Source: Flavobacteriales bacterium
Lineage (GTDB): Bacteria > Bacteroidota > Bacteroidia > Flavobacteriales_D > Sanyastnellaceae
Length of the DNA stretch: 27,194 nucleotides
Reading direction: 5' to 3'
Assembly (NCBI GenBank): GCA_044368835.1
Contig: JBILIX010000001.1
Coordinates: forward strand, 1 to 27,194
Positions 7,093 through 27,006 of the stretch are shown here, piece after piece. Within the stretch, counting starts at the first letter, position 1; each line of letters begins with the position of its first letter. The notes under the pieces are model-generated. The model saw nothing but the letters and a program-made list of their open reading frames with translations, did not search any database and was not told the DNA's origin. The position numbers and the translations under genes are program-made.

Positions 7093-7124
7093 TTTCAAGA
7101 AATGTAATCGTGAAATTAAGCAAA

Positions 7125-7149
7125 CAAATTTAGCTGAAAATCAGCTAAA
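7125..7149 (-). promoter_or_regulatory. -7 box TAAATTTG (7125-7132, minus) overlapped by a perfect 9-bp inverted repeat TTTAGCTGA-AAA-TCAGCTAAA (7129-7149)
   Basis: Read directly in the 108-bp gap between the two paralogues. Its function (operator or weak terminator) is not established. Confidence 0.5.
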
Positions 7150-10815: not shown

Positions 10816-10845
10816 CGATGGATTTGGCCTGGTGAACCACTAAGT

Positions 10846-10872
10846 AAGACACCTATTGATGCAAAAAGTTGC
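10846..10872 (-). promoter_or_regulatory. Putative ECF-sigma promoter GCAAC-N16-TGTCTT upstream of 7207..10815
   Basis: Plus strand GTTGC at 10868-10872 and AAGACA at 10846-10851, 16-nt spacer, oriented towards the gene and ending 30 nt before its ATG. Confidence 0.6.
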
Positions 10873-10905
10873 ACAAGGCACTTAAAATAGTTCTGAAAAG
10901 TGGTT

Positions 10906-12084
10906 CTAATAAAGGACCAAAACATGTCCTTCGAACAAATGACCAATACCGCGTTCAGTATCTCGAGCCAAAATGCGGTAATTGTATTGTCCGCTGCCTA
11001 CAAGGCCTGTAGCGGATGAAAGTCCACCATCCCAGACTGCTAACGTGCTTTCCGACTGAAAAACAACCGTTCCCCAAACATCGAAAATTTCGATAGAAAC
11101 AAAATTGGGATCAATACCCAATCCATTTATTTCCCAAGTGTCATTGATGCCATCGCCATCGGGGGTGAATGCATTGGGCAGATACAACTCAATAGCTTGT
11201 ACAACTTCGATTGATTTTTCAGTGGTCGCAATACATCCGAAGACATTGCTTGCTGTAAGTTTCAAGGTGTAATTTTTCTCGAGATCCGCAGGGAACTCGA
11301 TGGTAGGTTCGAAATCGGAAAGTGGCAGCGCTCCTTCATATTGCCAAGTAAATGAATCGGCTCCATTACTTGTATTTTCAATTTTCAGGGTCGTTTCAGG
11401 TAAATAAAGTCTATCAGAATTAACTTTATAAGATGCAACCGGCGTAGTGTATACGCGAATACCAATATCGAGTGAATCGTTCCACACACAGCCGTAAATG
11501 TCAGTTATGGAAAGACTTGGAATAAAGAGTCCGGGGTCCTCGTATGTATGCCAAGCCGATGCTAGCTGAAGGTCAGAGCGTCCGTTGCCGTAGTTCCATT
11601 TCATTTCGGCGACATACTGAAACGCCAAGAAGTTGGAGGTGAATAGCACATTGACTGGTGAGCAACCTTCCCAAACATCAACCTCAAACTCTGCATTAAT
11701 GGGTTGATGCGGATAAAGTATAAAAGCCTGTGAGGCCGTTTTTCCTGCTGCATCCATAATGACGAGCTGCATCGAAGTGGTATCCGTCAGATTCAATTCA
11801 AGAGTGGGTGCAGAGCCAACGAGTAGGCCGAAGTTTTCCCAGCGGTATTGAAAGGGGGCAATGCCTCCTGTAATGCTATCGGGTGCAATCACAAAGTCTG
11901 ATCCCGGACAGAAATAGATTTCCTCGCTCATATGCAGCACAGGTAACGATTTAAGAGTCGTCACTTGGGCAAAAGATTGAGCAGAAAAAAGCAATGAAAC
12001 AAGAAAGAATACTCCACGAAGAGGGTGGGCGAAAAGTGATGTAATCATGTGTGAAATCCGGAGCATACCGTGCCCTATACGCAA
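10906..12084 (-). CDS. PKD-domain protein with T9SS type-B CTD
   Basis: Signal ending SFA|Q; PKD MKWNYGNG...HTYEDPG; CTD LYLPNAFTPDGDGINDTW...IFDVWGTVVF...WDG...YNY. The start is uncertain (TTG 12084, or ATG 12066 or 12048). Confidence 0.88.
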   Translation of the reverse strand: MRIGHGMLRISHMITSLFAHPLRGVFFLVSLLFSAQSFAQVTTLKSLPVLHMSEEIYFCPGSDFVIAPDSITGGIAPFQYRWENFGLLVGSAPTLELNLTDTTSMQLVIMDAAGKTASQAFILYPHQPINAEFEVDVWEGCSPVNVLFTSNFLAFQYVAEMKWNYGNGRSDLQLASAWHTYEDPGLFIPSLSITDIYGCVWNDSLDIGIRVYTTPVASYKVNSDRLYLPETTLKIENTSNGADSFTWQYEGALPLSDFEPTIEFPADLEKNYTLKLTASNVFGCIATTEKSIEVVQAIELYLPNAFTPDGDGINDTWEINGLGIDPNFVSIEIFDVWGTVVFQSESTLAVWDGGLSSATGLVGSGQYNYRILARDTERGIGHLFEGHVLVLY

Positions 12085-12107
12085 GCACTCGGAAAATGTT
12101 CGAATCT

Positions 12108-15100
12108 TTATCGAATCATTATTACACTTCCTGTAAAGTAGATGTCTTCGGCAGAATTATCTACACGCAGCTTGACACGCCAGTTATAGACTTCGTTCTG
12201 CCCGAAGAATAATCCGTTTTCAATATCCCCGGTCCAGGGTTCATCCGGGTTGTTGGAGTAGAATACGCTATCGCCCCAACGGTTGAAAATGCGCAGCTCA
12301 TATCCTGTCGTATCAAACCCGCGAATAATGGGCTTCCACAAATCGTTGTCGCCGTCGCCATCGGGCGTAAATGCATTCGGTGCAAACACCACATATTCGG
12401 CATCCATATACACATACCTACACGTCGTATCTCGGCAACCGTATTGATTTGCTACATCAAGGCATACATAAAAATTGTCGCTTCGTTCGTTTGGGAAAAT
12501 ATAGCTGGGATTCTCTTCTGTGCTTTCATCCAATCCGTTGAACCACCAATGATAGTAGGCGCTGCCAACTGAATGGTTGGTAAATTCAGCTTCGGGTTCC
12601 AGCGTGGTTAATTCGGTTGGTGATATGGTAAAATCGGCAATCGGTGAGGGGTAAACCTCAGCAATTTCCTCCAAGAACAATGTCGATACGCAATTGTATT
12701 CTGAAATGGCAGTGGCCTCAATATCATAAACACCCGGAACGACCAAATCAAGTTCAAGAGTGTCAGCAATGAATGTTCCTATTCCAGCAACATTCCATAC
12801 AATTTGATCTATGTTTTGGCTCTCGACGGAGGGTATAATTTCAAGAGCAATCGGCTTGCATCCGCGAACTGGATCAGATTGGACAATCAATACAGGAAGC
12901 GGGTTTACATTGATTTGGCTAAAGGCGTTTGAAACGCAACCGAAGTCAGAGGTGGCCTGCACACCAATATAAACCGATGAAGCGGGTTGAAGCAAAGGAG
13001 ACAGCGATGTCGGATCTTCGAAGAGGTTAGACGGAGTCCAGATGCAAGTTGTGTTCACCACATTTGCCAGTGGTAGCGTTTCACCGAAACACAGGTCATA
13101 GGAAGAGTTCAAGTTAATCAAGGGATTCGGCTCAACAATCACGGACACATTATCGGTAAAGGTGCAAACCCCATCGTTTGCGACAACCGTGTAAACGGTA
13201 GTCGTTTGTTGATTAACCTCTCCCGGAATGTTCACCGAAGGTGAAGGATCTGTCGCATTGTCGATGCCTGAAGTTGGCGTCCAGCTGTAGGTAGCTCCGG
13301 GCGCCGGATTGCCACCCAACAGTTGATTGGATGCGCCCGCGCACACATGTATGTCTTGCCCGGCACTGTAGTTAATGCCCATTTGTACATTGAGATCAAC
13401 CAGTGCCTCATCAGCGGGACAAGGTCCGTTGGCTTGTATCCGATATACATAGGTTCCTGATGCATCTTGCCCCGGATCAAAAGTGGAGGAATTGAAAGGT
13501 GAGTTATTGAAGTACCAAGCGCCTGCTCCGGATTGTGATTCGGGAAGAAAATCGCTCAACAATTCAGGGCCGTCTGTGTAACAGAAAATTGCTTCAGCGT
13601 CATCGCCTGCATCGTTCGGTGTATAGGTGATGAGGTCAATTTGCAAGCGCTCTCCACCGCAGTCTATGGGCTGAATCACTTCGTAGACATAGCTTTCGGT
13701 GCCGATAAAATCGATTGCTACAAAATTGGAAATTACCTCATTGCTTGTATTCAGCCAAGTCCCCATTCCAACGGCAGCAGGGGGCAATGCTGTATTCAGA
13801 TTGAACAAGGTGGTGCTCCTGCATACATCGAAGGGGGTTGTGGCATCCTCAATAAGCGGTTGCAGCACTTGTATGTTCAGTTGGCCTTCTTGATCGGGGC
13901 ATGAATTGCCGGAAGGGTTGATGACATTCAATTGAACGCTCGCTTCCAATGCCGGGGCGAAAAGGTTGCTTACCAACGCACCGGTAGCACTCTCGAAATA
14001 GACATTCGATAGGTTACTGAAGTAGTCTGTAAGATTCACTTCTTCTCCGAGGCTGCATAAATAAATAGTCTGACTCAATGGTTCAGCAACCGCAGGCTGC
14101 ACAAAAACAGAGAAGCTTGCTTGATCATCGGCGCAGACATTTGCATTTACCTGGTAGATGTAATTGAACGGGCCTGATGAGGTAGGAGTGAAGATGTTGC
14201 TAACCACATTACCATTGGTCGACCACGTGCCTCCGCTGGTAGCATTGCTGCTGAGCATACTGTTTAAGTTGAATGCTGCATCGGTCTGACAAATCGTAGC
14301 GCTTCCATTACTGCCAGCATTTGCAGGAGCCTCCACACTTATGCTAAGCGTGGAGCTAGCGGGATCGCAGCCAACATTAGGATAGTAATATTCATAGTTA
14401 CCTGCAGGTTCAGCACCGGGATTGAATGAGCCATCCACAATTTCACCAGCCTGGTTGGTCCACGTTCCTCCTGGAATGGGGTTCCCGTCGAGGGCGTTGA
14501 GCATGTTGAGGTTATTGGCTGTGGAGCACAGATCAACATCTGCGCTTAGTCCCGAAGGGTTATCCTGCGTGTAAGTTATGGTGAGAGTTGAAATTTGGGC
14601 GATGCACGGTTGTGCAGAGCTTATCGTATAGGTGTATACTCCTTCCTGCAGGGTAGAGGGATTAAACACATCGGATCCTGCAGGCGTTATCAATCCTGAT
14701 GGACCAGTCCAGTTTCCTCCATCGTCGGGTGTGCCTTGCAATTGGTTCAATAAATTAAACGGGCTGCTTCCTTCACAGACCATAATCGAGGCAGAAGTAC
14801 CTGCCAAACGTTGAGTCTGTTCATCTACGAACATACTGCGAAATACGGGCTGGCAGCCGGCTAGGTTATCGATTACATAGGTGAAAAGTGCGTCATCCAT
14901 GGTCGCCGGATCGAATATTCCTCCAGGAACAATATTCAGCGAAGCATCGAACCATTGGCCAATGGTATCGGGTGAACCCGCCATAAAGTCAACCATCTGA
15001 AACGGCTCGTAGGTTTCACAAATGACATAGGTAGTTGTCAGTCCCACGTCATTCGTTTGAATATAAATACCTGAAGTAACGTCGCAGCCTCCCGAACTGG

Positions 15101-15650
15101 TGGTATAGGTATACCAGCCGTTTTCAAATATCAGCTCGACTTCGTTTGGGTTTGACGGATTGGTTTGCTGCCAAACGGCAATGGAAGAAAGTGATGCGTT
15201 GGGGATTATCAAGCCATTCGGGGCGTACCAAATTCCGCCAGGAGCAAACGACGAAGTTTCCGGAGTCAAATCGTAGGTGTTTACAATGCTGGGATACTGC
15301 TCAAGGCACATATTGATTGAATATGCTGTTCCGAGCGAATTGGCTCCGGCGTCTATATTGAAGTAATGGTCTTCAATTGTTCCGTTCGCATACTCTACAA
15401 CGATGTGATAGACGGAAGGGCATAGGTTGTTTAGAGAGGTAGGCCCTGTAAGAGAAGAAGATGTAGCAACCGGAATATTGGAAACATCAAATAGCTGGTA
15501 GGAGTAGCTCTGCAACCCGGTGGGCTGAAAGGTTATGCTGCCAGTGCATTGGCAAGCATCTGCATCGGAAGGGGTAACAATGAATTGTGCTGAGGCCAGG
15601 TGGCTCAGTACGCACAAAACAACAGGTATTAGCCTTTCAACGAATTTCAC
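12108..15650 (-). CDS. Large repetitive T9SS type-B CTD protein (about eight Cys-bracketed ~80-aa repeats plus PKD domains)
   Basis: GTG start; signal ending ASA|Q; repeats such as AGxxxxxxxC...L...L.G.P..GG.W...F.P....G.Y.Y; PKD YHWWFNG; CTD FAPNAFTPDGDGDNDLW...IFNRWGDSVF. Confidence 0.9.
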   Translation of the reverse strand: MKFVERLIPVVLCVLSHLASAQFIVTPSDADACQCTGSITFQPTGLQSYSYQLFDVSNIPVATSSSLTGPTSLNNLCPSVYHIVVEYANGTIEDHYFNIDAGANSLGTAYSINMCLEQYPSIVNTYDLTPETSSFAPGGIWYAPNGLIIPNASLSSIAVWQQTNPSNPNEVELIFENGWYTYTTSSGGCDVTSGIYIQTNDVGLTTTYVICETYEPFQMVDFMAGSPDTIGQWFDASLNIVPGGIFDPATMDDALFTYVIDNLAGCQPVFRSMFVDEQTQRLAGTSASIMVCEGSSPFNLLNQLQGTPDDGGNWTGPSGLITPAGSDVFNPSTLQEGVYTYTISSAQPCIAQISTLTITYTQDNPSGLSADVDLCSTANNLNMLNALDGNPIPGGTWTNQAGEIVDGSFNPGAEPAGNYEYYYPNVGCDPASSTLSISVEAPANAGSNGSATICQTDAAFNLNSMLSSNATSGGTWSTNGNVVSNIFTPTSSGPFNYIYQVNANVCADDQASFSVFVQPAVAEPLSQTIYLCSLGEEVNLTDYFSNLSNVYFESATGALVSNLFAPALEASVQLNVINPSGNSCPDQEGQLNIQVLQPLIEDATTPFDVCRSTTLFNLNTALPPAAVGMGTWLNTSNEVISNFVAIDFIGTESYVYEVIQPIDCGGERLQIDLITYTPNDAGDDAEAIFCYTDGPELLSDFLPESQSGAGAWYFNNSPFNSSTFDPGQDASGTYVYRIQANGPCPADEALVDLNVQMGINYSAGQDIHVCAGASNQLLGGNPAPGATYSWTPTSGIDNATDPSPSVNIPGEVNQQTTTVYTVVANDGVCTFTDNVSVIVEPNPLINLNSSYDLCFGETLPLANVVNTTCIWTPSNLFEDPTSLSPLLQPASSVYIGVQATSDFGCVSNAFSQINVNPLPVLIVQSDPVRGCKPIALEIIPSVESQNIDQIVWNVAGIGTFIADTLELDLVVPGVYDIEATAISEYNCVSTLFLEEIAEVYPSPIADFTISPTELTTLEPEAEFTNHSVGSAYYHWWFNGLDESTEENPSYIFPNERSDNFYVCLDVANQYGCRDTTCRYVYMDAEYVVFAPNAFTPDGDGDNDLWKPIIRGFDTTGYELRIFNRWGDSVFYSNNPDEPWTGDIENGLFFGQNEVYNWRVKLRVDNSAEDIYFTGSVIMIR
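13380..15341 (-). repeat. Protein-level tandem repeats (about 8 degenerate ~80-aa units, two Cys each) inside 12108..15650
   Basis: Units begin near SINMC, YVIC, IMVC, VDLC, ATIC, IYLC, FDVC and AIFC, and most contain GGxW and a closing Y.Y....C. Boundaries are approximate; no obvious nucleotide-level identity. Confidence 0.75.
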
Positions 15651-15715
15651 AAGTTAGAATTCAAATCAATTTAAGTGGGAGTAAAACTAGCTATGAATAT
15701 AGATAAACATTGCTT

Positions 15716-15744
15716 GATACGGGATGAGTATCCACAAAGTTTCC
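15716..15744 (-). promoter_or_regulatory. Weaker ECF-like promoter candidate GGAAAC-N17-CGTATC upstream of the 15650/12084 gene pair
   Basis: AAAC at -35 and CGTA at -10 with a 17-nt spacer. It deviates from the four stronger GCAAC/YGTCT copies. Confidence 0.3.
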
Positions 15745-15760
15745 ACAAGTACGGGTCAAT

Positions 15761-15789
15761 AAAAAAAACCGCAACAATTGTTGCGGTTT
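15761..15789 (-). terminator. Intrinsic terminator after the sigma/anti-sigma operon
   Basis: Perfect 24-bp palindrome AAACCGCAACAATTGTTGCGGTTT (15766-15789) with an A8 run (U8 on the minus strand) at 15761-15768, about 30 nt past the stop at 15820. Confidence 0.85.
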
Positions 15790-15819
15790 CTTCTGTACAC
15801 GGGTTACAGTTAGCTTTGG

Positions 15820-17079
15820 TTAAGGAAAAACGTTGAATGTGCCGAAGAAATATTTTTGTTCTTGGCTATGGTCGTTCGAAATAATCACTTTGTAGGTGTA
15901 GGTGCTTCCAGATGCAGCTATTGCACCGTTTGGTAATTTCCCATCCCACCCTTTAATGCGGCTCGAGGTCTCGAAAATTTTGCTGCCTGCTTGATCATAG
16001 ATTGAAAGGATGAAATCCACTTTACTCTTTTTCAATCCTTGAGGCATGAACGAGCCAGAGGTAGTAGACCACTGCGCTGGAGCACCGAGCGCAAAATCAG
16101 AGTTCACACTAATATGCTTCACTGCGCCATCAGAGCATCCTGCTTCATTTTTAGCGTTGAGCGCAATCATTTGTCGACCCGAGTTTTGCAATACAAAGGT
16201 GGCACCTTCGGTAATGACTTTCGATTCCAATCCATTACTCCATTCGTATGAGTTTCCGCCTTCGGTGAGGTTTACAATTCTCACTTCCGGGGTGTTTGGG
16301 TTGGTATTGATAAATTCCCATCCGAAGTCTGCATCAGGCGCATCCTCAATGGTAATCATATCGTTCACAACTGTAGTGTTAATCTGGCCGTTGTCGCTCG
16401 TAATGGAAAGCGAAACATCGTAGTGACCTGCTTTTGAAAACTTGTGTTTTGGGTTGATGTCGTCGCTGAAGTGACCATCGCCAAAGTTCCACAGGTAGCT
16501 TCCTGTTTTTGGGCCATTTGTAGTTTGGAAATCAACCTCTTCTCCGCGACAAGCTTTGCGAACGTTGCATCCGAATTCGATAATGTTATCGGGCTTCTGG
16601 CCGTTGGAAATAGTATTCGACTGAACCGGCTGAACGGCTATCTCATCCGATTGGATTATTGCACCGTTGACTCCATCGTTAAAGGAGAGATAGCTTGCAC
16701 CTTCTGATGTTGGGCTGATCACTTGAGAAGCTTTTCCATTCACCATTAAGCTTGGGGCACCGACAGAGATCGCAGTAGTTGGTTGAATAGCAGAGTGACT
16801 TAATCCTCTGGTGGTATTAGTGACATGAATGGCAAACCTCTCCGATGTGTTTGCTTTCTGGGCAAAGGTAGAAGTGTGCTGATGATGATACAGTGCGACA
16901 GCCCCCCCCGAAAGAGCAAGTATGGTTGAAATTAAAGAAACAATCCAAACCGAATTGCCGATTTTAGCCATGCCCATTTGGCGCTGCAAAGCATTCCATG
17001 ATGTATGCTCGTACGGCATTGCATGCTCTTCCATCTTCTCTCGCAGGCTTCGCTCAAATGGCGTAAAGTTCTTTCTCAT
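15820..17079 (-). CDS. Putative membrane-anchored anti-sigma factor with PKD domains and a degenerate T9SS type-B-like C-terminal domain
   Basis: ATGA overlap with the ECF sigma stop. N-terminal FERSLREKMEEHAMPYEHTSWNAL segment; hydrophobic helix at aa 44-64; S/T/P-rich linker; PKD YLWNFGDG...PKHKFSKAGHYDVSL; C-terminus SIYDQAGSKIFE...GWDGK...YTYKVII...GTFNVF. The anti-sigma role is inferred. Confidence 0.65.
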   Translation of the reverse strand: MRKNFTPFERSLREKMEEHAMPYEHTSWNALQRQMGMAKIGNSVWIVSLISTILALSGGAVALYHHQHTSTFAQKANTSERFAIHVTNTTRGLSHSAIQPTTAISVGAPSLMVNGKASQVISPTSEGASYLSFNDGVNGAIIQSDEIAVQPVQSNTISNGQKPDNIIEFGCNVRKACRGEEVDFQTTNGPKTGSYLWNFGDGHFSDDINPKHKFSKAGHYDVSLSITSDNGQINTTVVNDMITIEDAPDADFGWEFINTNPNTPEVRIVNLTEGGNSYEWSNGLESKVITEGATFVLQNSGRQMIALNAKNEAGCSDGAVKHISVNSDFALGAPAQWSTTSGSFMPQGLKKSKVDFILSIYDQAGSKIFETSSRIKGWDGKLPNGAIAASGSTYTYKVIISNDHSQEQKYFFGTFNVFP

Positions 17080-17657
17080 TTAATTGTATGCAAATTCTTT
17101 GTAAGCAATTTCTTCATGTTTTTCTTGGCTTTAGCGTAGTTACTCTTGGAAGTGCCCACACTAATTCCCAACGCTTCAGCAATGTCCTGATGCGTGTAGT
17201 CTTCATATACATAGAGATTAAAAACCGTACGATAAGCTGGTGTCAATTGCTGCATGGCATCAATGATTTGCTCCGGCGTAATGTCATAAATCTCCTCGTT
17301 CTCAGCTGATTCGTCCGATTCTTCATCCGTTCCGCCGCTCCAATTTTCGATATCGTTTTGCTCTCCGAGCAAAACCAAGTCGTGTTTGAGTCGTCGATAA
17401 CGATCAATCGAAAGATTCACCATTATTCTTCTAATCCAGCCCTCGAAAGTACCCACACCGGTGTACTTCTCAAGGTTGTTGAACACCTTGAGAAATCCTT
17501 CCTGCAGCACGTCCATTGCTTGGTCAGAGTCCCTCGTGTATCGCATGCAAACGGATTTCATTTTTCCATAAAACATTTTATGGATCGCCTGCTGCGACCG
17601 TCTGTCTCCTTTGAGACAGCCATCGATCAATGCCTGCAAATGCTTGGTTTCTGCCAC
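17076..17657 (-). CDS. RNA polymerase ECF (sigma-70 group 4) sigma factor
   Basis: Region 2 CMRY...DVLQEGFLKVF...FEGWIRRIMVN and region 4 LTPAYRTVFNLYVYEDYTHQDIAEALGISVGTSKSNYAKAK; 193 aa; GTG start. Confidence 0.95.
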   Translation of the reverse strand: MAETKHLQALIDGCLKGDRRSQQAIHKMFYGKMKSVCMRYTRDSDQAMDVLQEGFLKVFNNLEKYTGVGTFEGWIRRIMVNLSIDRYRRLKHDLVLLGEQNDIENWSGGTDEESDESAENEEIYDITPEQIIDAMQQLTPAYRTVFNLYVYEDYTHQDIAEALGISVGTSKSNYAKAKKNMKKLLTKNLHTIK

Positions 17658-17670
17658 AAGGGTTATGGGT

Positions 17671-17697
17671 TAGACGAGATTTTGATAAAAGGGTTGC
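17671..17697 (-). promoter_or_regulatory. Putative autoregulatory ECF promoter GCAAC-N16-CGTCTA
   Basis: Plus strand GTTGC at 17693-17697 and TAGACG at 17671-17676, 16-nt spacer, ending 13 nt before the sigma GTG. It fits the general AAC(-35)/CGT(-10) ECF pattern. Confidence 0.7.
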
Positions 17698-17771
17698 CCG
17701 CTTCTAGATGCTTGGTCCTATTTCAATTGGATAAATGTAGAGTATTTACATCTAAACTTTACATTCGGATG

Positions 17772-17779
17772 TAATTTTG
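17772..17779 (+). promoter_or_regulatory. -7 box TAATTTTG for mnmA
   Basis: Exact TAnnTTTG, 4 nt before the ATG at 17784. Confidence 0.55.
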
Positions 17780-17783
17780 AACC

Positions 17784-18965
17784 ATGGCTAAGCGCGTCGT
17801 TGTGGGTTTATCGGGTGGGGTCGACTCCAGTGTCGCTGCTCATTTGCTGCTCGAGCAAGGGTATGAAGTCATTGGTATTTTCATGCGCAACTGGCACGAT
17901 GAGTCTGTGATTATCAATAACGAGTGCCCCTGGGTCGACGATAGCAACGATGCTATGCTCGCTGCAGAAGCGCTCGGTATTCCATTTCAGGTGCTGGACA
18001 TGAGTGCTCAATACAAGGAACGTATTGTAGATTACATGTTTCGGGAATACAGCATTGGCCGAACTCCCAACCCTGACGTGCTATGCAACCGCGAGGTGAA
18101 GTTCGATTTGTTTCTCCAGGTGGCTTTGTCGCTCCACGCGGATTATGTGGCAACTGGCCATTATTGCAAAAAAGAGGAGATCAGCGATGCGAGCGGCCAT
18201 GCGGTTTTTCGATTGCTGGCCGGAGCTGACCCCAATAAAGACCAGAGTTACTTTCTCTGCCAATTAAAACAAGCGCAATTGTCCAAAGCGCTTTTCCCGA
18301 TAGGCCATTTGCAAAAGTCGGAAGTTCGGGAAATTGCGCGTCAGATCGGGCTTCCGAATGCGGAGAAGAAAGATTCACAAGGACTCTGCTTCATCGGAAA
18401 GGTCAAACTACCTGTTTTTCTGCAGCAGCAGTTGGAGCCGAAGGTTGGGGATATCATTGAAATTCCCGAGAATTTTCCCGATGCGAATAGAGGCGAAGAA
18501 ATTACGGATGAACTCGTGCGTTTGTCCAACCCACCGGCTTTCTATCCTTCAATGGGTAAAGTTATCGGTCAGCACCAGGGAGCGCACTATTACACCACGG
18601 GTCAGCGAAAAGGGCTTGGGGTAGGGGGCAAGGCACTGCCACTTTTTATATTGGAGACGGATGCTGAAAACAATATAGTATATGTGGGACAGGGTGAAGA
18701 TCATGCGGGTCTATTGCGCCATGCATTGCGGGTAAGTACGGAGGATATCCATTGGGTGCGCGAAGATTTGCGCATGCTACCGGGAGAGGAGAGGAGCTAC
18801 CTCGGACGAATAAGGTACCGTCAGGAACTAGTCTCATGCAAGCTCGTAATGCGCAACGACGGGCTCTTTGTCCTTTTTGATGTCGTGCAGCGCGGAGTTG
18901 CAGCGGGTCAGTTTGTGGCTTGGTATGCCGATGATGAGCTTGTTGGCAGTGGTGTGATCGCCTGA
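17784..18965 (+). CDS. mnmA: tRNA 2-thiouridine(34) synthase MnmA
   Basis: PP-loop [42 protein letters not shown] and GQFVAWY. Confidence 0.97.
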
Positions 18966-18986
18966 AAATTTCATTTACTTGGGAAT

Positions 18987-19014
18987 GCAACTTCTTCCGA
19001 TAATTAATTGTCTT
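18987..19014 (+). promoter_or_regulatory. Putative ECF promoter GCAAC-N17-TGTCTT upstream of the T9SS type-A gene
   Basis: GCAAC at 18987-18991 and TGTCTT at 19009-19014, in the gap between mnmA and 19098. Confidence 0.55.
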
Positions 19015-19097
19015 GAGTAGAGAATGTTTTGCTTAACATTGTAGCAAACCTTTTCTCAAGAAAATTGTTTTAAATCCAAACCCAAATCACTAATACA

Positions 19098-21407
19098 ATG
19101 AGATTTATTTACTCCTGCTTGTTTTCTGCCGCGCTCTTGATGACGTTGGCAGCTAGTGCACAAGTTTTCCCGGGGTCTACTTGCGATTCAGCTATTGAAC
19201 TGCAATGTGGTCTCAGCTACGCCGGCTCCACAGCCGGTATTGTAAATGACTCAGAGACATCAGGTGCTTCTCAGTGCTCTGGTGTTGGAACCGCCGGTCA
19301 GCTTTGGTATTCCTACACAGCTGCTGAGTTTGGTGCTCTCATAGTTTCGACTTGTGGAAGCTCGATAGACACTCGTATCCACGTATATAGCGGAACCTGC
19401 GGTAATGGCAGCCTTTCTTGCTTAGCTCAGAACGATGACTATTGCAATTTCCAAAGTCAAGTTACTTTCGAAACGCTTCAGGGTGAAACTTACTTGATTC
19501 GCGTAGGCGGTTTCGGAGGAGTTTCAGGTTCGTTCATTTTGAACTTGTCTTGCGGTTCAGCTGAGGCTGGCTGCACAAATCCGTATGCAAGCAACTACAA
19601 TCCATTTGCCTTCTCAGACGATGGCTCATGCATCTACAGCGGCTGCACCGATCCATTAGCAGCCAATTACAATTCAATGGCCACAATAGACGACGGATCT
19701 TGCTACAATTGGGTCTATGGCTGCACCAATCCGGCAGCATTGAACTACAACCAGGCGGCAAACGCTGAAGACGGTTCATGTATCATTGAAGGTTGTACAG
19801 ATGCATCTGCTACTAATTACGACGCTGCTGCTACAATTGACAATGGCTCTTGCACCTATTGCAACGGAGCGGGAAGCATTATGGCAAGTCTCTATATATG
19901 CACATTCTCGAATGGTAACCAGGTGGAATTACAAATTGTAGATGATCAAGGTAACGAGGTTTATTATGCTACAGGTTTGAATAATGGAGCCATCATTTAT
20001 GCAAGCATTTGTTTGCAACCCGGTGTATGTTACACTGCGAATATGATTAATAATACCGGCCCATTTGGTTGGTACAACGGTTACTTCTGGGTGAATGCTT
20101 TTGGTACTCAAATTATCAATGCGCATCCTTCTGCAGATGCTCAGTTTGCTTCCGTTCAATTCAGCATCGATGGTACGTGCGGTCCAATCTTCGGATGTAC
20201 AGACCCAACAGCAGTGAACTACAACCCAGAAGCCAACATGGAAAATGGCACTTGCGTTTACCCTATTGCAGGTTGCACAGATTCAACTGCGGTAAACTTT
20301 GATTCACTCGCGTCAGTAGACAACGGTACCTGCTTTTACATGAACGATTGCTTGGGAAGTGTAACAGAGTTCATTCTAACCCCTGGAATGTTTGCTAATG
20401 AGGCGTCTTATGTGATTTATGATGAATTAGGTAATACCATCGCTGCCGGTTCCGGAGCAACTACACAATATGCATGTTTGTTAGATGGTTGCTACACCGT
20501 GGCCATGTACGATTCGTTTGGTGATGGCTGGGATGGTGGCGGCTACCTCGATGTAGTAATAAATAGCGAGACTACCAACTCCTTTGCTCTAACCACCGGC
20601 TTTGAGGGTGCTGACTATTTCGGAATAAACGCAGAAGGTTGTGTGCCTGTTATTGCTGGCTGCACTGACCCTACAGCATTGAACTATAACGCGCTGGCCA
20701 ACGAAGACGATGGTTCATGCCAATACCCATTGAACTGCACAGATAACCTGGTTACCATTCAAATTGTAACCTCAAACTGGGGTTCTGAAGTTGGTTGGAG
20801 CCTCGTAGATGCAGCAGGTGTTGAAGTGGCATCAGGCTCGGGCTACTCAAGCTGGGGATGGTATACAGAGTACGCTTGCGTGGCCGATGGTTGCTATCAG
20901 TTGATTCTCACAGACAGCTGGGGCGATGGTTGGAATGGAGCTTATTATATGATTTCAACGGGCGGAGCTTATTACGAAGGATCAATGTACTATGGCTCAA
21001 ACGCGATCGATATGATTGCAGTGAATTCAGACTGCGGAGTACTTCCGGGTTGCACCGATGTTGAGGCTATCAACTACGATCCGCAGGCATCTTTCGATGA
21101 CGGTTCATGCATGTACAATTCGGGTAGTGGTCTTGGCATCACAAATGGTTTGGAAATGGAGTTCTCCATCTATCCGAACCCAACCAACGGAGGTATTATC
21201 GTTAATGCAACATCACTCGATCCATTGAAAGTAGTTACCGTAAATATCTACGGTGCTGAAGGTCGCTTGGTTCGTTCGATAACTCAAGGTGCAGGTACTG
21301 CAACTGTTCAAATTCAGGAGGACTTGACTGATTTGTCTGCAGGATATTATTTCGTAGAAATGGTGAATGGCTCTGCTCGCGCAGTGAAGCCGCTTGTTAA
21401 GCAATAA
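19098..21407 (+). CDS. T9SS type-A sorting-domain protein with GCTD-type Cys repeats
   Basis: Signal ending ASA|Q; N-terminal beta-sandwich-like module (LWYSYTA...STCGSSIDTRIHVYSG...NDD...YLIRVGG); eight GCTxxxAxNYxxxAxxDDGSC repeats; CTD FSIYPNPTNG...VNIYGAEGRLV...LSAGYYFVEM. Confidence 0.9.
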   Translation: MRFIYSCLFSAALLMTLAASAQVFPGSTCDSAIELQCGLSYAGSTAGIVNDSETSGASQCSGVGTAGQLWYSYTAAEFGALIVSTCGSSIDTRIHVYSGTCGNGSLSCLAQNDDYCNFQSQVTFETLQGETYLIRVGGFGGVSGSFILNLSCGSAEAGCTNPYASNYNPFAFSDDGSCIYSGCTDPLAANYNSMATIDDGSCYNWVYGCTNPAALNYNQAANAEDGSCIIEGCTDASATNYDAAATIDNGSCTYCNGAGSIMASLYICTFSNGNQVELQIVDDQGNEVYYATGLNNGAIIYASICLQPGVCYTANMINNTGPFGWYNGYFWVNAFGTQIINAHPSADAQFASVQFSIDGTCGPIFGCTDPTAVNYNPEANMENGTCVYPIAGCTDSTAVNFDSLASVDNGTCFYMNDCLGSVTEFILTPGMFANEASYVIYDELGNTIAAGSGATTQYACLLDGCYTVAMYDSFGDGWDGGGYLDVVINSETTNSFALTTGFEGADYFGINAEGCVPVIAGCTDPTALNYNALANEDDGSCQYPLNCTDNLVTIQIVTSNWGSEVGWSLVDAAGVEVASGSGYSSWGWYTEYACVADGCYQLILTDSWGDGWNGAYYMISTGGAYYEGSMYYGSNAIDMIAVNSDCGVLPGCTDVEAINYDPQASFDDGSCMYNSGSGLGITNGLEMEFSIYPNPTNGGIIVNATSLDPLKVVTVNIYGAEGRLVRSITQGAGTATVQIQEDLTDLSAGYYFVEMVNGSARAVKPLVKQ
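19569..21116 (+). repeat. Eight ~23-aa GCT(D/N)xxAxN(Y/F)xxxAxx(D/E)(D/N)G(S/T)C repeats in blocks of 4, 2, 1 and 1
   Basis: Blocks at 19569-19859, 20193-20339, 20658-20726 and 21048-21116, read from the translation and located in the DNA. Confidence 0.85.
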
Positions 21408-21425
21408 TTGATAGATCAAATATTT

Positions 21426-21455
21426 AAAAAGGCCGCACAAAGCGGCCTTTTTTTT
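21426..21455. terminator. Bidirectional intrinsic terminator between the convergent T9SS-A and GT2 genes
   Basis: AAAAAGGCCGC-ACAAA-GCGGCCTTTTTTTT: GC stem with an A-tract before and a T8 tract after. Confidence 0.9.
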
Positions 21456-21522
21456 ATGACATCTACTTGATAAATCCTTTGCTAGAATATCAAGTTATCT
21501 GTTTGCGATTTCGTTCTGCTGA

Positions 21523-22476
21523 TTACAATTCCTCACGAATTTTATATTGATTCCTTGACGGTGAATTGCGAGTAATCAACTCGCCCACAAAGCCTGCAAG
21601 GAATAGCTGTGTTCCAAGAATCATGGAGGTGAGGGCTATATAGAAACTCGCTTGGTCTGCCACAAGAGGAGCCTTGCTATGCCATACATACAAGTGCATG
21701 AACTTCTGAAGAATAAGATACGCTGTAAGTCCAAGTCCGATTACAAAGGTTGTTGCTCCAATGGTCCCGAAGATGTGCATGGGGCGTTTTCCAAACTTGG
21801 AAATAAACATGATGGTCAACAAGTCGAGTGGACCATTGATGAATCGCTCCAACCCGAATTTCGTGGTTCCATACTTGCGCGCCCTGTGTTCAACAACCTT
21901 TTCACCGATTTTTTTAAAGCCTTCTCGATGCGCTATTACAGGAATATAACGGTGCATTTCCCCGAAAATCTCTACGCTTTTTACAACCTCATTGGAATAG
22001 GCTTTCAGTCCGCAGTTGAAATCATGAAGGTAAATTCCGCTCATTCTGCGAGTGGCCCAGTTGTAAAGTTTCGTGGGAATCGTCTTTGAAATCGGGTCGT
22101 GACGTTTCTTTTTCCAACCGCTCACCAAGTCGAACCCTTCAGAAGTTATCATGCGATACAATTCAGGAATCTCATCAGGCGAGTCTTGCAAGTCGGCATC
22201 CATGGTAATGACCACTTTTCCATTGCAAGCATCAAATCCGGTATGCAGAGCAGCGCTCTTGCCATAGTTTCGCTGGAATCGAATGCCTCGCACCTCGGGG
22301 TTGTTGGTCTTGAGTTCACTGATGATTTTCCAAGATTCATCTTTCGAGCCATCATCAATAAATAAGATTTCATAGCTCAGGGATGCGCTGTCACATACAC
22401 GCTTGATCCAGGCATGCAACTCAGGCAATGACTCCGCTTCATTGAGCAAGGGTATTACGAGCGAAATGTCTTTCAT
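21523..22476 (-). CDS. Glycosyltransferase family 2 (polyprenol-phosphate glycosyltransferase, ArnC/GtrB-like)
   Basis: Start reassigned to MKDISLVIP at 22476 (ATGA overlap with the upstream gene). Motifs DDGSKD, RNYGKSAAL, MDADLQD, SGWKKKRHD and FNCGLKAY, with two C-terminal hydrophobic helices. Confidence 0.92.
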   Translation of the reverse strand: MKDISLVIPLLNEAESLPELHAWIKRVCDSASLSYEILFIDDGSKDESWKIISELKTNNPEVRGIRFQRNYGKSAALHTGFDACNGKVVITMDADLQDSPDEIPELYRMITSEGFDLVSGWKKKRHDPISKTIPTKLYNWATRRMSGIYLHDFNCGLKAYSNEVVKSVEIFGEMHRYIPVIAHREGFKKIGEKVVEHRARKYGTTKFGLERFINGPLDLLTIMFISKFGKRPMHIFGTIGATTFVIGLGLTAYLILQKFMHLYVWHSKAPLVADQASFYIALTSMILGTQLFLAGFVGELITRNSPSRNQYKIREEL

Positions 22477-23009
22477 GCTGTGATGAACGGGTTTTTTTGT
22501 TCTTTTCGCTTGATGAAAGAAGCACAAATTACGCTGATCAAGGCCATGAAAAGACCACCTTTCAACCAGCTCAGGAGTTGAGCGCCAGGTTTAAACTGTG
22601 ATGGAAGGTCTTTCATTTCCTTTAAAGTCTCTTTAATTGCTTCTTCCGGCGCGCCCCATTTTTCCATCGTTTTTTCGGTCTCTTCCAAAATGCGAACGGA
22701 AAGTTCCTTTGCCAGGCTCTTATCAATTACATTGAAAAGCACAATATTCCAAATAGTTGAAATCAATGTGGCAAGCATGAGCATGGAGAGCAAAATAATG
22801 AATGTCTGCTTCAATTGAAATGGCTCCGATTCATGCTTATTGCGTAGTTGGATGGTGAAGTAACAGATCAACCCGATGGAAATGGGGTACATGATTACGG
22901 AATACCACCAGTTCGCAAAAACATCCATTCCGGCAGCATAGAGCAATGCCATGTAAGCACTGATCACAACACCCACGATTATTCCATAACGGAGTATACT
23001 TTCTTTCAT
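22473..23009 (-). CDS. DUF4199-like multi-pass membrane protein
   Basis: Start reassigned to MKESILRYGIIVG at 23009. About four hydrophobic helices with a charged helical loop before the last one; coupled to GT2. Family call by pattern recognition. Confidence 0.7.
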   Translation of the reverse strand: MKESILRYGIIVGVVISAYMALLYAAGMDVFANWWYSVIMYPISIGLICYFTIQLRNKHESEPFQLKQTFIILLSMLMLATLISTIWNIVLFNVIDKSLAKELSVRILEETEKTMEKWGAPEEAIKETLKEMKDLPSQFKPGAQLLSWLKGGLFMALISVICASFIKRKEQKNPFITA

Positions 23010-23031
23010 ACGCTGAAACAATTGGTTTTGC

Positions 23032-23039
23032 CAAAAATA
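23032..23039 (-). promoter_or_regulatory. -7 box TATTTTTG for the DUF4199-GT2 operon
   Basis: Exact TAnnTTTG, 22 nt before the ATG at 23009. Confidence 0.45.
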
Positions 23040-23106
23040 GTAGGTCAATCAGAAGCGGGAGATTCAATTTTAAGAAAAAACCTACGGGGGTTTGTTGAAA
23101 CAACCT

Positions 23107-23114
23107 TACTTTTG
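23107..23114 (+). promoter_or_regulatory. -7 box TACTTTTG for the SRP RNA
   Basis: Exact TAnnTTTG about 5 nt before the predicted RNA 5' end. Confidence 0.65.
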
Positions 23115-23119
23115 CCGTC

Positions 23120-23225
23120 AAAGGGCAAGTCTTTTACGACCAGCTCCTGTCCAATCCTCCAGGGCCGGAAGGCAGCAAAGGCAGACGGTTGTAGCGGTGC
23201 GATAAATTGGGCTTGCCTTTTTTTT
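23120..23225 (+). ncRNA. ffs: Signal recognition particle RNA (4.5S, small bacterial type)
   Basis: Helix-8 core CAGGGCCGGAAGGCAGCA (23160-23177, GGAA tetraloop) followed by AAGGCAGA. Closing stem AAAGGGCAAGT (23120-23130) pairs with GCTTGCCTTTT (23211-23221), with a T8 tract at 23218-23225. Confidence 0.93.
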
Positions 23226-23322
23226 ATTTCCTTTCATCAACAATCAATAGCCAATAATTCTCTGTGTGCCTTCTTCTATTGGAGGTTTTCAACTGCTAGT
23301 TTCGTTGATCAGTAAAAGCTCT

Positions 23323-23844
23323 ATGAAAAAAATCGATGTAGCGTATTATACACGTCGCGCCAATGCTAAAAAGAAAACGCTTGCCGCTGACCTTAAGAAA
23401 ATTATCAAGAAAAACCCAAAAGGGTTGCTGGCCGATGTGAAGAGCGCTACGGAGTCAACATGGAAGGATGTGAGTTGTGTGGCATGCGGCCATTGTTGCA
23501 TGGAAATGACACCAACCTGGAAGAAGTCAGAAATAAAGCGTGTTGCAGCGCATTTCGGGATGACCTCGGCTCAGTATTACGAAAAGTATTTATATACCGA
23601 GGAGAAGACGGGAGATATCATGAACGATAGCACTCCCTGCCAGCATTTCGACAAGAAGAAGGGGCTTTGTACGATTTACGAAATTCGCCCTTCCGACTGT
23701 GCAGAATTTCCACATTTTCACCGAAAAGATTTTAAGGATCAGGTCGAAGAAGTTTTTATTCCCAACATGGCGCGTTGTCCGGCCACTTTGGTGATGGTAG
23801 AGAAGCTAAACGAGATTATGCGCGAGAAGGGCGTAATAAAGTAA
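23323..23844 (+). CDS. YkgJ-family cysteine-cluster (CxxCxxCC) protein
   Basis: CVACGHCC...CQHF...CTIYEIRPSDCAEFP. Start reassigned to MKKIDV at 23323; Lys-rich N-terminus. Confidence 0.88.
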   Translation: MKKIDVAYYTRRANAKKKTLAADLKKIIKKNPKGLLADVKSATESTWKDVSCVACGHCCMEMTPTWKKSEIKRVAAHFGMTSAQYYEKYLYTEEKTGDIMNDSTPCQHFDKKKGLCTIYEIRPSDCAEFPHFHRKDFKDQVEEVFIPNMARCPATLVMVEKLNEIMREKGVIK

Positions 23845-23851
23845 CAACGAC

Positions 23852-25171
23852 ATGAAGTCACTTGCACATCCGCGACGCGTTCCCTTTATGGTATATGCTG
23901 ACGCAGACGGAAACATATTTGAAGATGAGCGTTACGAAGCAGTTGGGCGAAGTGGATATGACGTCTATCCGCTCACTCCTGAAGACTTCATAGAGTTACC
24001 AACCGGTAGCGACTTATTTACACTTCCCGGCCGACGACCCTATGGTCTGAATCTGGAAACGGGAGAGTTCGATATTTGCGAGGAAGTACAGGCTGTGGCC
24101 GCATTGAATGCACCCGCATACACGCAGTTATATATGGCCGCATTTGGCACTGAAGAAGAGGGCGCACCAACATTGCCTTTGTATTGTTATACGGTGGTGG
24201 GCTGGCTGGACGGGAAGTTCTATACGACTGCGGTTCGAATCGATGCGGATGAACGCCAAGATCTGGAAAACTTTGATCAGGAATTGATCATTGAAGAGAC
24301 TAAAAAGCGACTGCAGCAACATCCGGAGAATAGACTCGTTCAGCACCTTGGCAACAATTGCAGCATTCGCTATTGTTGCCCTGCTGCCCGCAATTTTTTT
24401 ATGGGGCGTTGGGAATGTCCAATTCCGGTTTCGCCTGCATGCAACAGCAATTGCCTCGGTTGTATTTCGTTTCAACCGGAGGAGCATGAATTGACCTCTC
24501 CTCAGGACCGACTCACATTCATTCCGACTGTTGATGAAATCGTTGAATTCACGGTGCCGCATTTAGAAAGCGCTGAAAGGCCCATTGTGAGTTTCGGTCA
24601 GGGCTGCGAGGGTGAGCCTCTGCTCGTATGGCAACTAATGCGCGATGCAATCATTGCTATTCGCAAGAAAACATCGCGGGGAATCATCAACTTGAATACG
24701 AATGGAAGCAAGCCAAAGGCAGTGGAGGAGTTGATGAAGGCCGGTCTGAGTTCAATTCGAGTGAGCACCAACTCAGCTCGAAAATCAGTTTACGAGTCCT
24801 ACTATTTACCCAATAACTATGCATTCGAGGACATAAGAGAGAGTGCGCGCATTGCTCGCCAATACGGTGGCTGGGCAAGTATCAACTATTTCACTTTCCC
24901 CGGCATGACCGACCAGGAGGAGGAGTATGAGGCACTCCGCGATTGGATTCGTTACAGCGATTTGTCCATGATTCAATGGCGCAATTTCAACATAGATCCC
25001 GATTGGTATTTGGGTAAGCTAGGCATTACGGAACTGAAGCCTGGAATGGGAGTTCGTCAGATGATGGTCAAGATTAGGCAAGAGTTTCCTCACTTGGCCT
25101 ATGGATATTTCAATCCACCCAACGAAGTGCAGACGAAATACAATGCGATTCGCATAGAGCTTGGTAGGTAA
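23852..25171 (+). CDS. Radical SAM protein of unknown function
   Basis: CxxxCxxC motif (CNSNCLGC, aa 197-204, nt 24440-24463), SFGQGCEGEP in place of the GGE motif, and NLNTNG and IRVSTNS barrel strands. Confidence 0.88.
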   Translation: MKSLAHPRRVPFMVYADADGNIFEDERYEAVGRSGYDVYPLTPEDFIELPTGSDLFTLPGRRPYGLNLETGEFDICEEVQAVAALNAPAYTQLYMAAFGTEEEGAPTLPLYCYTVVGWLDGKFYTTAVRIDADERQDLENFDQELIIEETKKRLQQHPENRLVQHLGNNCSIRYCCPAARNFFMGRWECPIPVSPACNSNCLGCISFQPEEHELTSPQDRLTFIPTVDEIVEFTVPHLESAERPIVSFGQGCEGEPLLVWQLMRDAIIAIRKKTSRGIINLNTNGSKPKAVEELMKAGLSSIRVSTNSARKSVYESYYLPNNYAFEDIRESARIARQYGGWASINYFTFPGMTDQEEEYEALRDWIRYSDLSMIQWRNFNIDPDWYLGKLGITELKPGMGVRQMMVKIRQEFPHLAYGYFNPPNEVQTKYNAIRIELGR

Positions 25172-25306
25172 GAAACGTGGTTGGCTCATTTCATCGGCAA
25201 AATTGTTTGCTTAGCTGTTGTGAAATCATAACTTGTTGATTTCCTTTGTTTTTATCTTGACTTCTTAAAGAGTTGATGCATCTTTGTGTTACCTTAACGA
25301 AGAAAG

Positions 25307-25603
25307 ATGACCTCGAAAGTATTTTATTGTTCTAAGCAGCGTGCAATGCACCTTGTTCAAGATGTGCTTAAAGAGATGAAGCTAATTGAAACAAAACCGA
25401 ACAGTTCTGGCAACACCCTATTTGCCGAACGCGGTTGGAGTTTTTTGAGTCCTCCGACCGGAGTAGAGGTTAGGATTTTCACCGAAGACAGACGAGTAGA
25501 AGTTGCTGTGAATGTTGAGAGTAAGGTGAAAATGCTCGATTTCGGCAGGAGTGAGTATTTAGAGGAAGAGATTCTGTATCGTATCAAAGAGCGTATAAAT
25601 TGA
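25307..25603 (+). CDS. Hypothetical 98-aa protein
   Basis: Fills the gap between the radical SAM and PhoD genes, has an A-rich upstream region and a plausible alpha/beta pattern. No family recognised with confidence. Confidence 0.7.
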   Translation: MTSKVFYCSKQRAMHLVQDVLKEMKLIETKPNSSGNTLFAERGWSFLSPPTGVEVRIFTEDRRVEVAVNVESKVKMLDFGRSEYLEEEILYRIKERIN

Positions 25604-25605
25604 GT

Positions 25606-26928
25606 TTACCACTGCGGTACATCGCGGGTCCACAGCAATTTTCCATTCGAATCAAAGACATTCATCGTAAGAACGCGGTGTTTCTTTTTTCCAGTAAACT
25701 CTAGTGTAGCGAAATGCCTTACACCTGTTATGGTGTTTTCCACACGCCAACGATTCTCTTCTTTCGACATGTCAAACGCCCTGCTAGTCAGGGGTGAAAC
25801 GGTAAGGTCGTAAACACCATTCTCATTTTTCAGTGGCATAAAGGAAAGCTCCCCGCAATGCCTGTCGCCGGTGAGGAATACAACACCTCGTATATTCTCT
25901 TTTTCGATCGCCTCAATAATGAAGCTTCTTTCTTCGGCATAATTCGAATAGTTCTCAAACACCTCGGCGCTATTTAAGAATTGACCACCGATCGCAATGA
26001 GTTTAAAGGGTGCCTGACTTTGTTTCAGGGCCTGAAGGAGCCATTCCAATTGTGTTGCGCCCAATATCGTGGGCGATGTATGGCCTATAGTGTCTTTCCA
26101 GGTGCGGTGATAGCGGTTGTCGAGCAGAAAGAAGTCAATATCGGAAAACTGAAGTTGGGTTGAGATTCCGCGCCCGGCCTCATCCACGGAGAGCCCATAG
26201 GACGGATTAGGCCAAAACGATTTAAATGCCTCCAATGTCCAGTCTTTGTGAACGAATGAGCCATTTGAATCGTTGGGTCCGAAATCATGATCATCCCAAA
26301 TGGCAAGGTTTGGACAGTGTTTGAGTAGGTTTTGAATTTCTTTTTGCGAGCGAGTGTGTTTGTAGCGGTGTGCGATGCTTGCATAAGAGGTAAAGTCAAC
26401 CTCGCGCAGGTAAATATTGTCGCCCAACCATAGCATCATATCGGGATCTTTTTTTACGATTGTGTCGAATATGTGAAACTCGCCACCATAGGGGTCTCCC
26501 GGACGATCGTAGGCGGGCTCATTCACGAAAGTACAGCTGCCAACAGCCATTTTAAAATCGGGCGCTTCTTTCCGAAACTGCCACAGATCTTGTGTAGTAA
26601 GGGTGTATGTCCGTGATGAAGCATAGCCGCTTGCAACATCTATAAATGGGCGATAATTATAGGTGGTTCCCGGCTCAAGTCCCTCTAAGTCGATGATGCA
26701 TGAAAAGCCGTTGCGTGCGACTGTGTTCGATTTGAAAATAAGTTCAGGAGCTTTACTTCCAGGAAGCGAGACAGCAATGGCTACCGGTTCCTCCATATCG
26801 GTGGCAACCCAAACTCGGGCAGAACGCATTCCCACATAACCCAAAGCATGTTGAATTTGACCGTACGTAAAGTTTGCCCAACAAAGGCTGAGTATCAGCG
26901 AAATTCGAATAGCATTGCCTGAATTCAT
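25606..26928 (-). CDS. Alkaline phosphatase D (PhoD)-family metallophosphatase, secreted
   Basis: GSC, WLGDNIY, WDDHDFGPND, FFLLDNRYHR, LGATQLEWL and TGDRH motifs; signal ending TYG|Q. Confidence 0.92.
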   Translation of the reverse strand: MNSGNAIRISLILSLCWANFTYGQIQHALGYVGMRSARVWVATDMEEPVAIAVSLPGSKAPELIFKSNTVARNGFSCIIDLEGLEPGTTYNYRPFIDVASGYASSRTYTLTTQDLWQFRKEAPDFKMAVGSCTFVNEPAYDRPGDPYGGEFHIFDTIVKKDPDMMLWLGDNIYLREVDFTSYASIAHRYKHTRSQKEIQNLLKHCPNLAIWDDHDFGPNDSNGSFVHKDWTLEAFKSFWPNPSYGLSVDEAGRGISTQLQFSDIDFFLLDNRYHRTWKDTIGHTSPTILGATQLEWLLQALKQSQAPFKLIAIGGQFLNSAEVFENYSNYAEERSFIIEAIEKENIRGVVFLTGDRHCGELSFMPLKNENGVYDLTVSPLTSRAFDMSKEENRWRVENTITGVRHFATLEFTGKKKHRVLTMNVFDSNGKLLWTRDVPQW

Positions 26929-26978
26929 AGTTTTTGCTTAATTGGTGAACAGATTAGTTGATTAAATTGCGTCCCCTT

Positions 26979-27006
26979 GCAACCCGCAAGTTACCTTAAT
27001 CGTCTT
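26979..27006 (+). promoter_or_regulatory. Putative ECF promoter GCAAC-N17-CGTCTT
   Basis: GCAAC at 26979-26983 and CGTCTT at 27001-27006, ending 6 nt before the GTG at 27013. Confidence 0.65.

Follow-up and report, generated by a model that had tools for sequence, protein, structure and literature searches.

In Streptomyces coelicolor, promoters read by sigma-E, a sigma factor of the extracytoplasmic function (ECF) type, follow the pattern GGnAACC-N16/17-CGTCTT, and the hrdD P1 site reads GGCAACC...CGTCTT (PMC6767563). In Flavobacterium psychrophilum, where transcription starts have been mapped, an ECF motif (SM6) of the form nnAAC ... CGT(A/T)T occurs, for example as GTAAC...GCGTAT and ACAAC...ACGTTT (PMC9723704). 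In Porphyromonas gingivalis, SigP, an ECF sigma that is stabilised by PorX and has no anti-sigma partner, drives the por machinery genes for type IX secretion (by the system known as T9SS) (PMC4800418; ECF228, PMC7826278). Little is understood about the control of the many surface proteins that T9SS secretes in environmental Flavobacteriales. Here we describe ECF-type promoters in a stretch of 27,194 nucleotides (nt; the window), contig C297 of a 2.39-Mb metagenome-assembled genome (MAG) of a Flavobacteriales bacterium, 88% complete and of river origin, in which about 140 genes encode such proteins. The GCAAC and CGTC words as such are already known from classic ECF promoters. What is well supported by the present analysis is an ECF promoter class with a target set rich in T9SS cargo; the assignment of the cargo promoters to the sigma factor encoded beside them is doubtful.

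An exact search for GCAAC-N16/17-YGTCT gives exactly four matches in the window, all of them between open reading frames (ORFs) and directed at the adjacent start. An earlier note on this DNA had named four intergenic, start-directed sites with 16-17-nt spacers, and these four alone are what the search returns. They fall into two classes, defined below:

10847..10872, minus strand: ECF-type promoter of class II (GTGCAACT, TGTCTT, spacer 16); 31 nt separate it from the ATG of the gene for a protein of 1202 amino acids (aa)
17670..17698, minus strand: ECF promoter of class I for the sigma operon (GGCAACC, CGTCTAA, spacer 16 counted from GCAAC); exact match at 17672-17697
18987..19013, plus strand: ECF-type promoter of class II (ATGCAACT, TGTCTT, spacer 17); 84 nt separate it from the ATG of the gene for a 769-aa protein
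26979..27005, plus strand: class II ECF-type promoter (TTGCAACC, spacer 17, CGTCTT), before an ORF at the contig end

In 100 dinucleotide shuffles of the window the mean was 0.21 matches, and 0/100 reached four. The remaining 2.36 Mb of the genome hold 22 matches, which corresponds to an expectation of 0.25 for one window (Poisson P(>=4) = 1.4e-4); counting promoter-position matches alone, the clustering in the window has P = 2.8e-6. Moreover, the position of the matches depends on the spacer. Over the whole genome, 12/26 matches with N16/17 stand in promoter position, against a total of 2/52 with wrong spacers (N12-13, 0/13; N14-15, 0/15; N18-19, 1/16; N20-21, 1/8), a difference with Fisher p = 1.3e-5. 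An unbiased count of the words that lie at motif distance after every GCAAC places GTCT at the top (15 against 1.6 expected). Leaving the first −10 base free yields 15 promoter-position sites genome-wide, one of which is a false match inside the start of a glycogen synthase gene. The motif has the properties of an ECF-type promoter, namely AAC at −35, CGT/GTC at −10, a spacer of 16-17 and enrichment upstream of genes, and judged by sequence the four window sites are all genuine promoters, read by sigma factors of the ECF class (group 4) and of two related sub-types.

The genes behind the motif are predominantly T9SS cargo. In the window these are:

7207..10815, minus strand: CUB/PKD protein, 1202 aa, with a CHU_C type-B T9SS sorting domain (Pfam/NCBIfam); paralogue B
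19098..21407, plus strand: 769-aa protein with a type-A T9SS sorting domain (domain searches)
27013..27194, plus strand: signal-peptide ORF, 5' end only, cut by the contig end; its orthologues are CHU_C type-B cargo of ~1330 aa

Six of the ten assessable genes downstream of the motif carry a T9SS sorting domain, as compared with ~141 of ~2160 (~6.5%) in the genome overall (binomial 1.3e-5). They comprise the 1202-aa and 769-aa genes, genes on contigs C111, C251 and C318, and the cut window ORF, which was counted through its ~1330-aa CHU_C orthologues. The non-cargo genes behind the motif code for a lipoprotein and for proteins of the DUF5684 and PorP/SprF types. Three further genes behind the motif run off their contigs; they encode an IgGFc/Ig_7 protein, a PKD protein and an unknown protein that has a signal peptide. 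Class II accounts for the three sites before window cargo and for eight elsewhere in the genome, mostly before T9SS cargo. The sites are also conserved. The one before the 1202-aa gene has equivalents with diverged spacers in 6 relatives; GGAATGCAAC followed by NGTCT is retained after mnmA in most members of the genus and recurs in other genera; and the site before the contig-end ORF is conserved in 10 genus members, in 3 of them with a diverged spacer. Enrichment before T9SS cargo and conservation before orthologues were among the checks that the earlier note had named beforehand, and both came out in favour of the motif, the second for the sigma site as well as the three cargo sites. The local surface-protein regulon proposed in that note is borne out as to the cargo, but not as being only local, because 11-15 sites occur genome-wide. 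The gene identities given there (an ECF sigma, a 1202-aa PKD/CHU_C protein, a 769-aa type-A protein and the contig-end ORF) agree with our domain searches.

The sigma operon, in front of which the class I site of the window lies, consists of the following:

17076..17657, minus strand: ECF (group 4) sigma factor, 193 aa (Pfam Sigma70_r2, Sigma70_r4_2; NCBIfam sigma70-ECF)
15820..17079, minus strand: anti-sigma-like membrane protein, 419 aa, co-transcribed with the sigma gene; 4-nt overlap with the sigma stop
15760..15786, minus strand: intrinsic terminator (GC hairpin and T run) that ends the operon; kept after the gene in 10 relatives

The 193-aa protein matches Sigma70_r2 (E = 2e-15), Sigma70_r4_2 (E = 2e-16) and TIGR02937 (96 bits, cut-off 42.9), and shows no Pfam match to sigma-70 region 3 or 1.1, as is characteristic of the ECF group, whose members have regions 2 and 4 alone in about 170-200 aa; in NCBIfam, none of its best equivalog-level matches reaches the cut-off. 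The start codon, a GTG, is 14 nt downstream of the −10 element. Orthologues were found in 40/41 genomes searched in the order, with 46-99% identity, and the sigma's own promoter is kept with diverged spacers in 29/30 relatives across the order (the named relatives in the comparison are Flavobacteriales of the Crocinitomicaceae, Cryomorpha, Lishizhenia and Fluviicola). At 79 named Flavobacteriales loci this promoter is strict in 41, most of the others having a CGTT variant or a spacer of 15, and the CGT of the −10 element is invariant in ~100 orthologous promoters. A conserved copy of the motif before a sigma's own gene is the footprint of autoregulation; with a copy this deeply conserved, the local sigma very probably autoregulates via its class I promoter, as had been claimed before. 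It would thereby drive a two-gene operon, itself and its membrane partner, up to the terminator. The operon is taken to be bicistronic because the terminator after the 419-aa gene is conserved and no ECF motif is found upstream of the 1180-aa gene that comes next.

The conserved N-terminus of the 419-aa protein (~43 aa) is followed by a single membrane helix, a variable linker and a PKD domain, and at the end stands a type-B sorting domain of degenerate form, the C-terminal part giving PKD_4 and a weak CHU_C match (Pfam/NCBIfam). F8, E9, W28, Q32 and W45 in the N-terminal part are invariant across 11 orthologues. Searches of Pfam and NCBIfam returned no known anti-sigma domain, and we infer an anti-sigma-like role from the build of the protein and the position of its gene. 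In this build it resembles the Dma1/Reo proteins, which have a cytoplasmic N-terminus of ~40 aa (sufficient by itself to bind the sigma in Dma1), a single inner-membrane helix and a long variable linker. Dma proteins, however, end in an eight-stranded outer-membrane barrel, of which no match was found in the 419-aa protein by Pfam or NCBIfam; in place of a barrel it has a PKD domain and a T9SS type-B sorting domain of degenerate form. The presence of a membrane partner gene also separates the locus from the SigP type (ECF228), which is defined by an orphan sigma, control by PorX and por targets (PMC7826278). The PorXY-SigP system of P. gingivalis likewise ties an ECF sigma to type IX secretion in Bacteroidota, but in the present genome a membrane partner accompanies each sigma, and what lies behind the promoters is cargo and a single PorP/SprF gene. 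Closer in lineage is F. psychrophilum, a member of the same order, in which a CGT-box ECF motif (SM6) precedes an ECF/anti-sigma operon, T9SS genes and small RNAs (PMC9723704). There the words differ, the targets belong to the T9SS machinery (GldN, PorU) and not to the cargo, and the partner of the sigma has 150 aa (PMC9723704); moreover, the starts behind SM6 were mapped, whereas the promoters described here are known from sequence.

The four window sites are not alike. Class I, GGCAACC-N16-CGTC, is shared by the promoters of the sigma operon, of the DUF5684 gene and of an unannotated RNA of ~88 nt. In 46/46 promoters of the two protein-gene loci it has G at −1 (the base before GCAAC), C after GCAAC, C as the first base of the −10 element and a spacer of 16. 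Class II is TGCAAC(C/T), mostly N17, NGTCTT: among 35 sites counted, the base before GCAAC is T in 31 and G in 0, the first −10 base is T in 16, A in 10, C in 7 and G in 2, and the spacer is 17 in 28. Within the window, only the sigma's own site combines all four class I features. The three cargo sites depart from them, with T at −1 in all three, T after GCAAC together with T first in the −10 element in two, and a spacer of 17 in two, and class I features are likewise missing from the cargo promoters at orthologous sites across the genus. The sigma-E systems of S. coelicolor and Escherichia coli are similar in their AAC −35 and (C)GTC −10 elements, the spacer of 16-17, an autoregulatory promoter copy and envelope or secreted targets, and hrdD P1 of S. 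coelicolor has the same words as class I. They differ in phylum and in the unrelated anti-sigma-like partner; furthermore, in the present genome two paralogous sigmas share a −35 core and are told apart by a single flanking base, by the opening base of the −10 element and by one base of spacer.

About 12 ECF genes are present in the genome, and only three have GCAAC upstream. One of them, on contig C309, encodes a paralogue 41% identical to the sigma of the window. In 20/20 tabulated orthologues of the genus and family, its own promoter has a 17-nt spacer and T or C at −1, and the first −10 base varies. Five further genera likewise show a spacer of 17, with T, C or A and never G at −1; the −10 element is GTCT in 3/5, and in one genome this promoter is a perfect class II site. 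Two of the window cargo sites agree fully with the paralogue type (T/C before GCAAC, any first −10 base, GT(C/T)T, spacer 17), and the third departs from it by its spacer of 16 alone. The cargo genes are more likely to be read by the paralogue because class II matches its own promoter at the positions that separate the classes. The C309 paralogue would then transcribe the cargo genes, possibly with some cross-reading by the local sigma. That class II is mainly read by the paralogue has, in our estimate, a chance of about one half; the whole two-class account, in which the local sigma autoregulates and the paralogue mostly reads the class II promoters of the cargo, seems to us slightly more probable than its negation. 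The claim of one motif and one local sigma does not hold in its original form, since the cargo promoters lack the strict features of class I and carry those of the paralogue type, and the caveat attached to it, that a different ECF sigma could own the motif, is live and somewhat favoured.

Further attempts to separate the two sigmas were uninformative. Position weight matrices (PWMs) built from the own promoters of the two sigmas score most sites in favour of the paralogue; such PWMs come from related sequences and overfit, which is why position counts were used instead. The paralogue is present in 10/10 of the genomes tested in which class II occurs, and it is present in the RNA runs like the local sigma; neither observation discriminates. 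At the 79 named loci, a comparison of the fourth −10 base in the sigma's own promoter with that of nearby sites, made to look for co-variation, gave 10 C/C pairs and 2 informative T-type loci, which are too few, and the fifth −10 base (T or A), tried as a marker in G005, occurs as both letters within single genomes. In other families and in distant members of the genus, the strict class II pattern gives few intergenic matches, with little excess over a reversed-pattern control, and the motif is probably looser there.

Assembled contigs of four river metatranscriptome runs were aligned to the window. Contig depth is 6-31 over the sigma operon and mostly 7-16 over the 769-aa gene, the best-represented regions, and 0.5-2.5 over mnmA between them; it is intermediate over the 1202-aa gene and near zero over the 392-aa and 1180-aa genes. 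Between 15866 and 21201, the sigma operon and the 769-aa gene are thus ~5- to 20-fold deeper than mnmA in the four metatranscriptomes. Contigs cross the junction of the sigma and 419-aa genes in two runs. Adapter-joined ends occur at 17653 in two runs, 19 nt after the −10 element of the sigma, and near the 1202-aa gene contigs end at 10820/10821, 26-27 nt after the −10 element (10820 being adapter-joined in one run). These ends do not locate a start; at the 1202-aa gene, one contig runs on through the promoter.

Several observations weigh against the paralogue as the reader of class II. Its own −10 element is mostly GTTT in the genus, while class II and the promoter of the local sigma have GTCT, and no GTTT class is enriched in the genome. 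PWMs from orthologous promoters overstate specificity. The RNA contigs, high for the sigma operon and the 769-aa gene and low for the intervening mnmA, fit either model; both sigmas occur in the same river runs, and the contig ends fall 19-27 nt after the −10 elements. Other observations lend themselves directly to a single-sigma model, in which the ECF sigma of the window reads all four sites and the cargo promoters are weaker or looser versions within a local regulon. Three class II sites lie less than 10 kb from the local sigma and none within 1.5 kb of the paralogue, so that the class clusters around the former; the mnmA-adjacent site keeps its position beside the local sigma in other genera; and one window cargo site has a spacer of 16, as in class I. 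GCAAC and GTCT cores are common to all four sites, both the sigma operon and the 769-aa gene are well represented among the RNA contigs, and in the targets of known ECF sigmas the bases upstream of AAC and the first −10 base are variable, as with S. coelicolor sigma-E (PMC6767563). Degenerate sites, however, would drift before GCAAC, and class II has T there in most sites and never G. Moreover, the bona fide second targets of the local sigma, the DUF5684 gene and the ~88-nt RNA, keep G, C and the spacer of 16 across the family, and the CGT that is invariant in its own promoters is missing from 2/3 of the window cargo sites. In our view a single sigma is doubtful.

Recognition may also overlap, both paralogous sigmas reading class II, in which case the cargo genes would integrate two envelope signals. 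Bacillus subtilis sigma-W, -X and -M, which share promoters, provide a model. The GCAAC −35 core and the GT(C/T)T −10 core are common to both sigmas, whose genes, as noted, are found together in the RNA runs, and the F. psychrophilum study likewise proposes shared ECF motifs (PMC9723704). Conversely, the strict and separately conserved signatures of classes I and II argue for selection keeping them apart, and we regard overlapping recognition as unlikely. Finally, that the cargo sites are chance matches or the sites of another regulator, with the genes on housekeeping promoters such as TAnnnTTG, would accommodate the conserved TAnnnTTG box 21 nt after the motif before the 769-aa gene, the listed RNA contigs of this gene, which start at 19167 or later, and the read-through contig at the 1202-aa gene, but it is very improbable given the spacing-specific enrichment in promoter position, the retention of both half-sites with diverged spacers at three loci and the same motif before the sigma gene of the paralogous lineage.

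If the two-class account applies, two near-identical promoter classes suggest that a single flanking base and a single base of spacer may be what keeps paralogous ECF sigmas insulated. A more specific division of labour can be imagined, in which the local sigma would serve a small envelope module made up of itself, DUF5684 and the small RNA, the paralogue would serve adhesin-like T9SS cargo with limited cross-reading, and the PKD and decayed sorting domain of the partner would sense secretion load; as a whole this is rather improbable, but if true, the 419-aa partner would couple cargo export at the T9SS to transcription. In any event, a promoter class before a subset of the T9SS cargo genes, together with two candidate sigmas and their membrane partners, offers a testable entry point, and the case carries a lesson for genome scans, in that a shared core motif beside a sigma gene does not prove that this sigma owns the nearby sites.

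Outside the sigma operon, strict class I has only two conserved targets in the genome. The gene for the DUF5684 membrane protein (C54:13428-13930, L002) has a strict class I promoter in 20/22 relatives, in the family and beyond, and among candidate conserved targets of the local sigma it ranks first. The ~88-nt RNA candidate (C312:6559-6680; L285:260-381) has a class I promoter with GGCAACC, a spacer of 16 from GCAAC and CGTCA. In 6 genus genomes it comprises a 5' stem-loop with one compensatory change, an invariant unpaired stretch of ~26 nt and a terminator; it has no Rfam match and looks like an ECF-dependent small RNA. Seed complementarity near gene starts gave AT-rich promoter-box words alone and no clear target. 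Elsewhere on contig C54 (C54:11457-11763, L002), the 281 nt behind a site reading AGCAACC, spacer 16, CGTCTT contain no ORF and give no Rfam match; this stretch may be another non-coding transcript or a long leader. On the same contig, the PorP/SprF-family gene (C54:5430-6536, L002) has a weak class II-like site, CGCAACG, spacer 17, AGTCTG, 40 nt upstream.

As to the layout of the window, the minus strand carries the ECF sigma gene, the 419-aa gene overlapping its stop and then four large PKD/CHU_C proteins, and the plus strand carries mnmA, the 769-aa type-A gene, further genes and the signal-peptide ORF at the contig end. Between the class II site and the 769-aa gene lies one further element:

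19034..19041, plus strand: TAnnnTTG box (TAACATTG), in the same place in 10 relatives as read from the alignment

This box is a probable second promoter of the 769-aa gene, of housekeeping type. The mRNA of the contig-end ORF would be leaderless or nearly so, because the GTG stands 7 nt after the −10 element. All genus orthologues have a GTG at this distance of exactly 7 nt (27013 in the window), which is in frame with the ORF in some alone; in two others the start is an ATG or TTG ~10 nt further on. TAnnTTTG boxes occur at 17772-17779 (+), 2720-2727 (-), 23107-23114 (+) and 7125-7132 (-). They end 5 nt before the start codons of mnmA and the peroxidase gene and 2 nt before the signal recognition particle (SRP) RNA, and with boxes so near the start codons leaderless mRNAs seem common here. 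The earlier suggestion that such boxes are housekeeping promoters stands for mnmA, the SRP RNA and the peroxidase but, taken strictly, not for DUF4199-GT2. Paralogue A (3553-7098) has a TAnnTTTG box 27 nt upstream and no ECF motif. The third ECF gene with GCAAC upstream, on contig C254 (C254:2330-3896, L058), has its own promoter of the form GGCAACTTT ... TATCAT in 15 genus genomes, and the 344-aa protein encoded after this sigma shares the build of the 419-aa protein, with a short N-terminus, one helix, an S/T/P-rich linker and a PKD domain, but has a full-scoring CHU_C sorting domain at its end.

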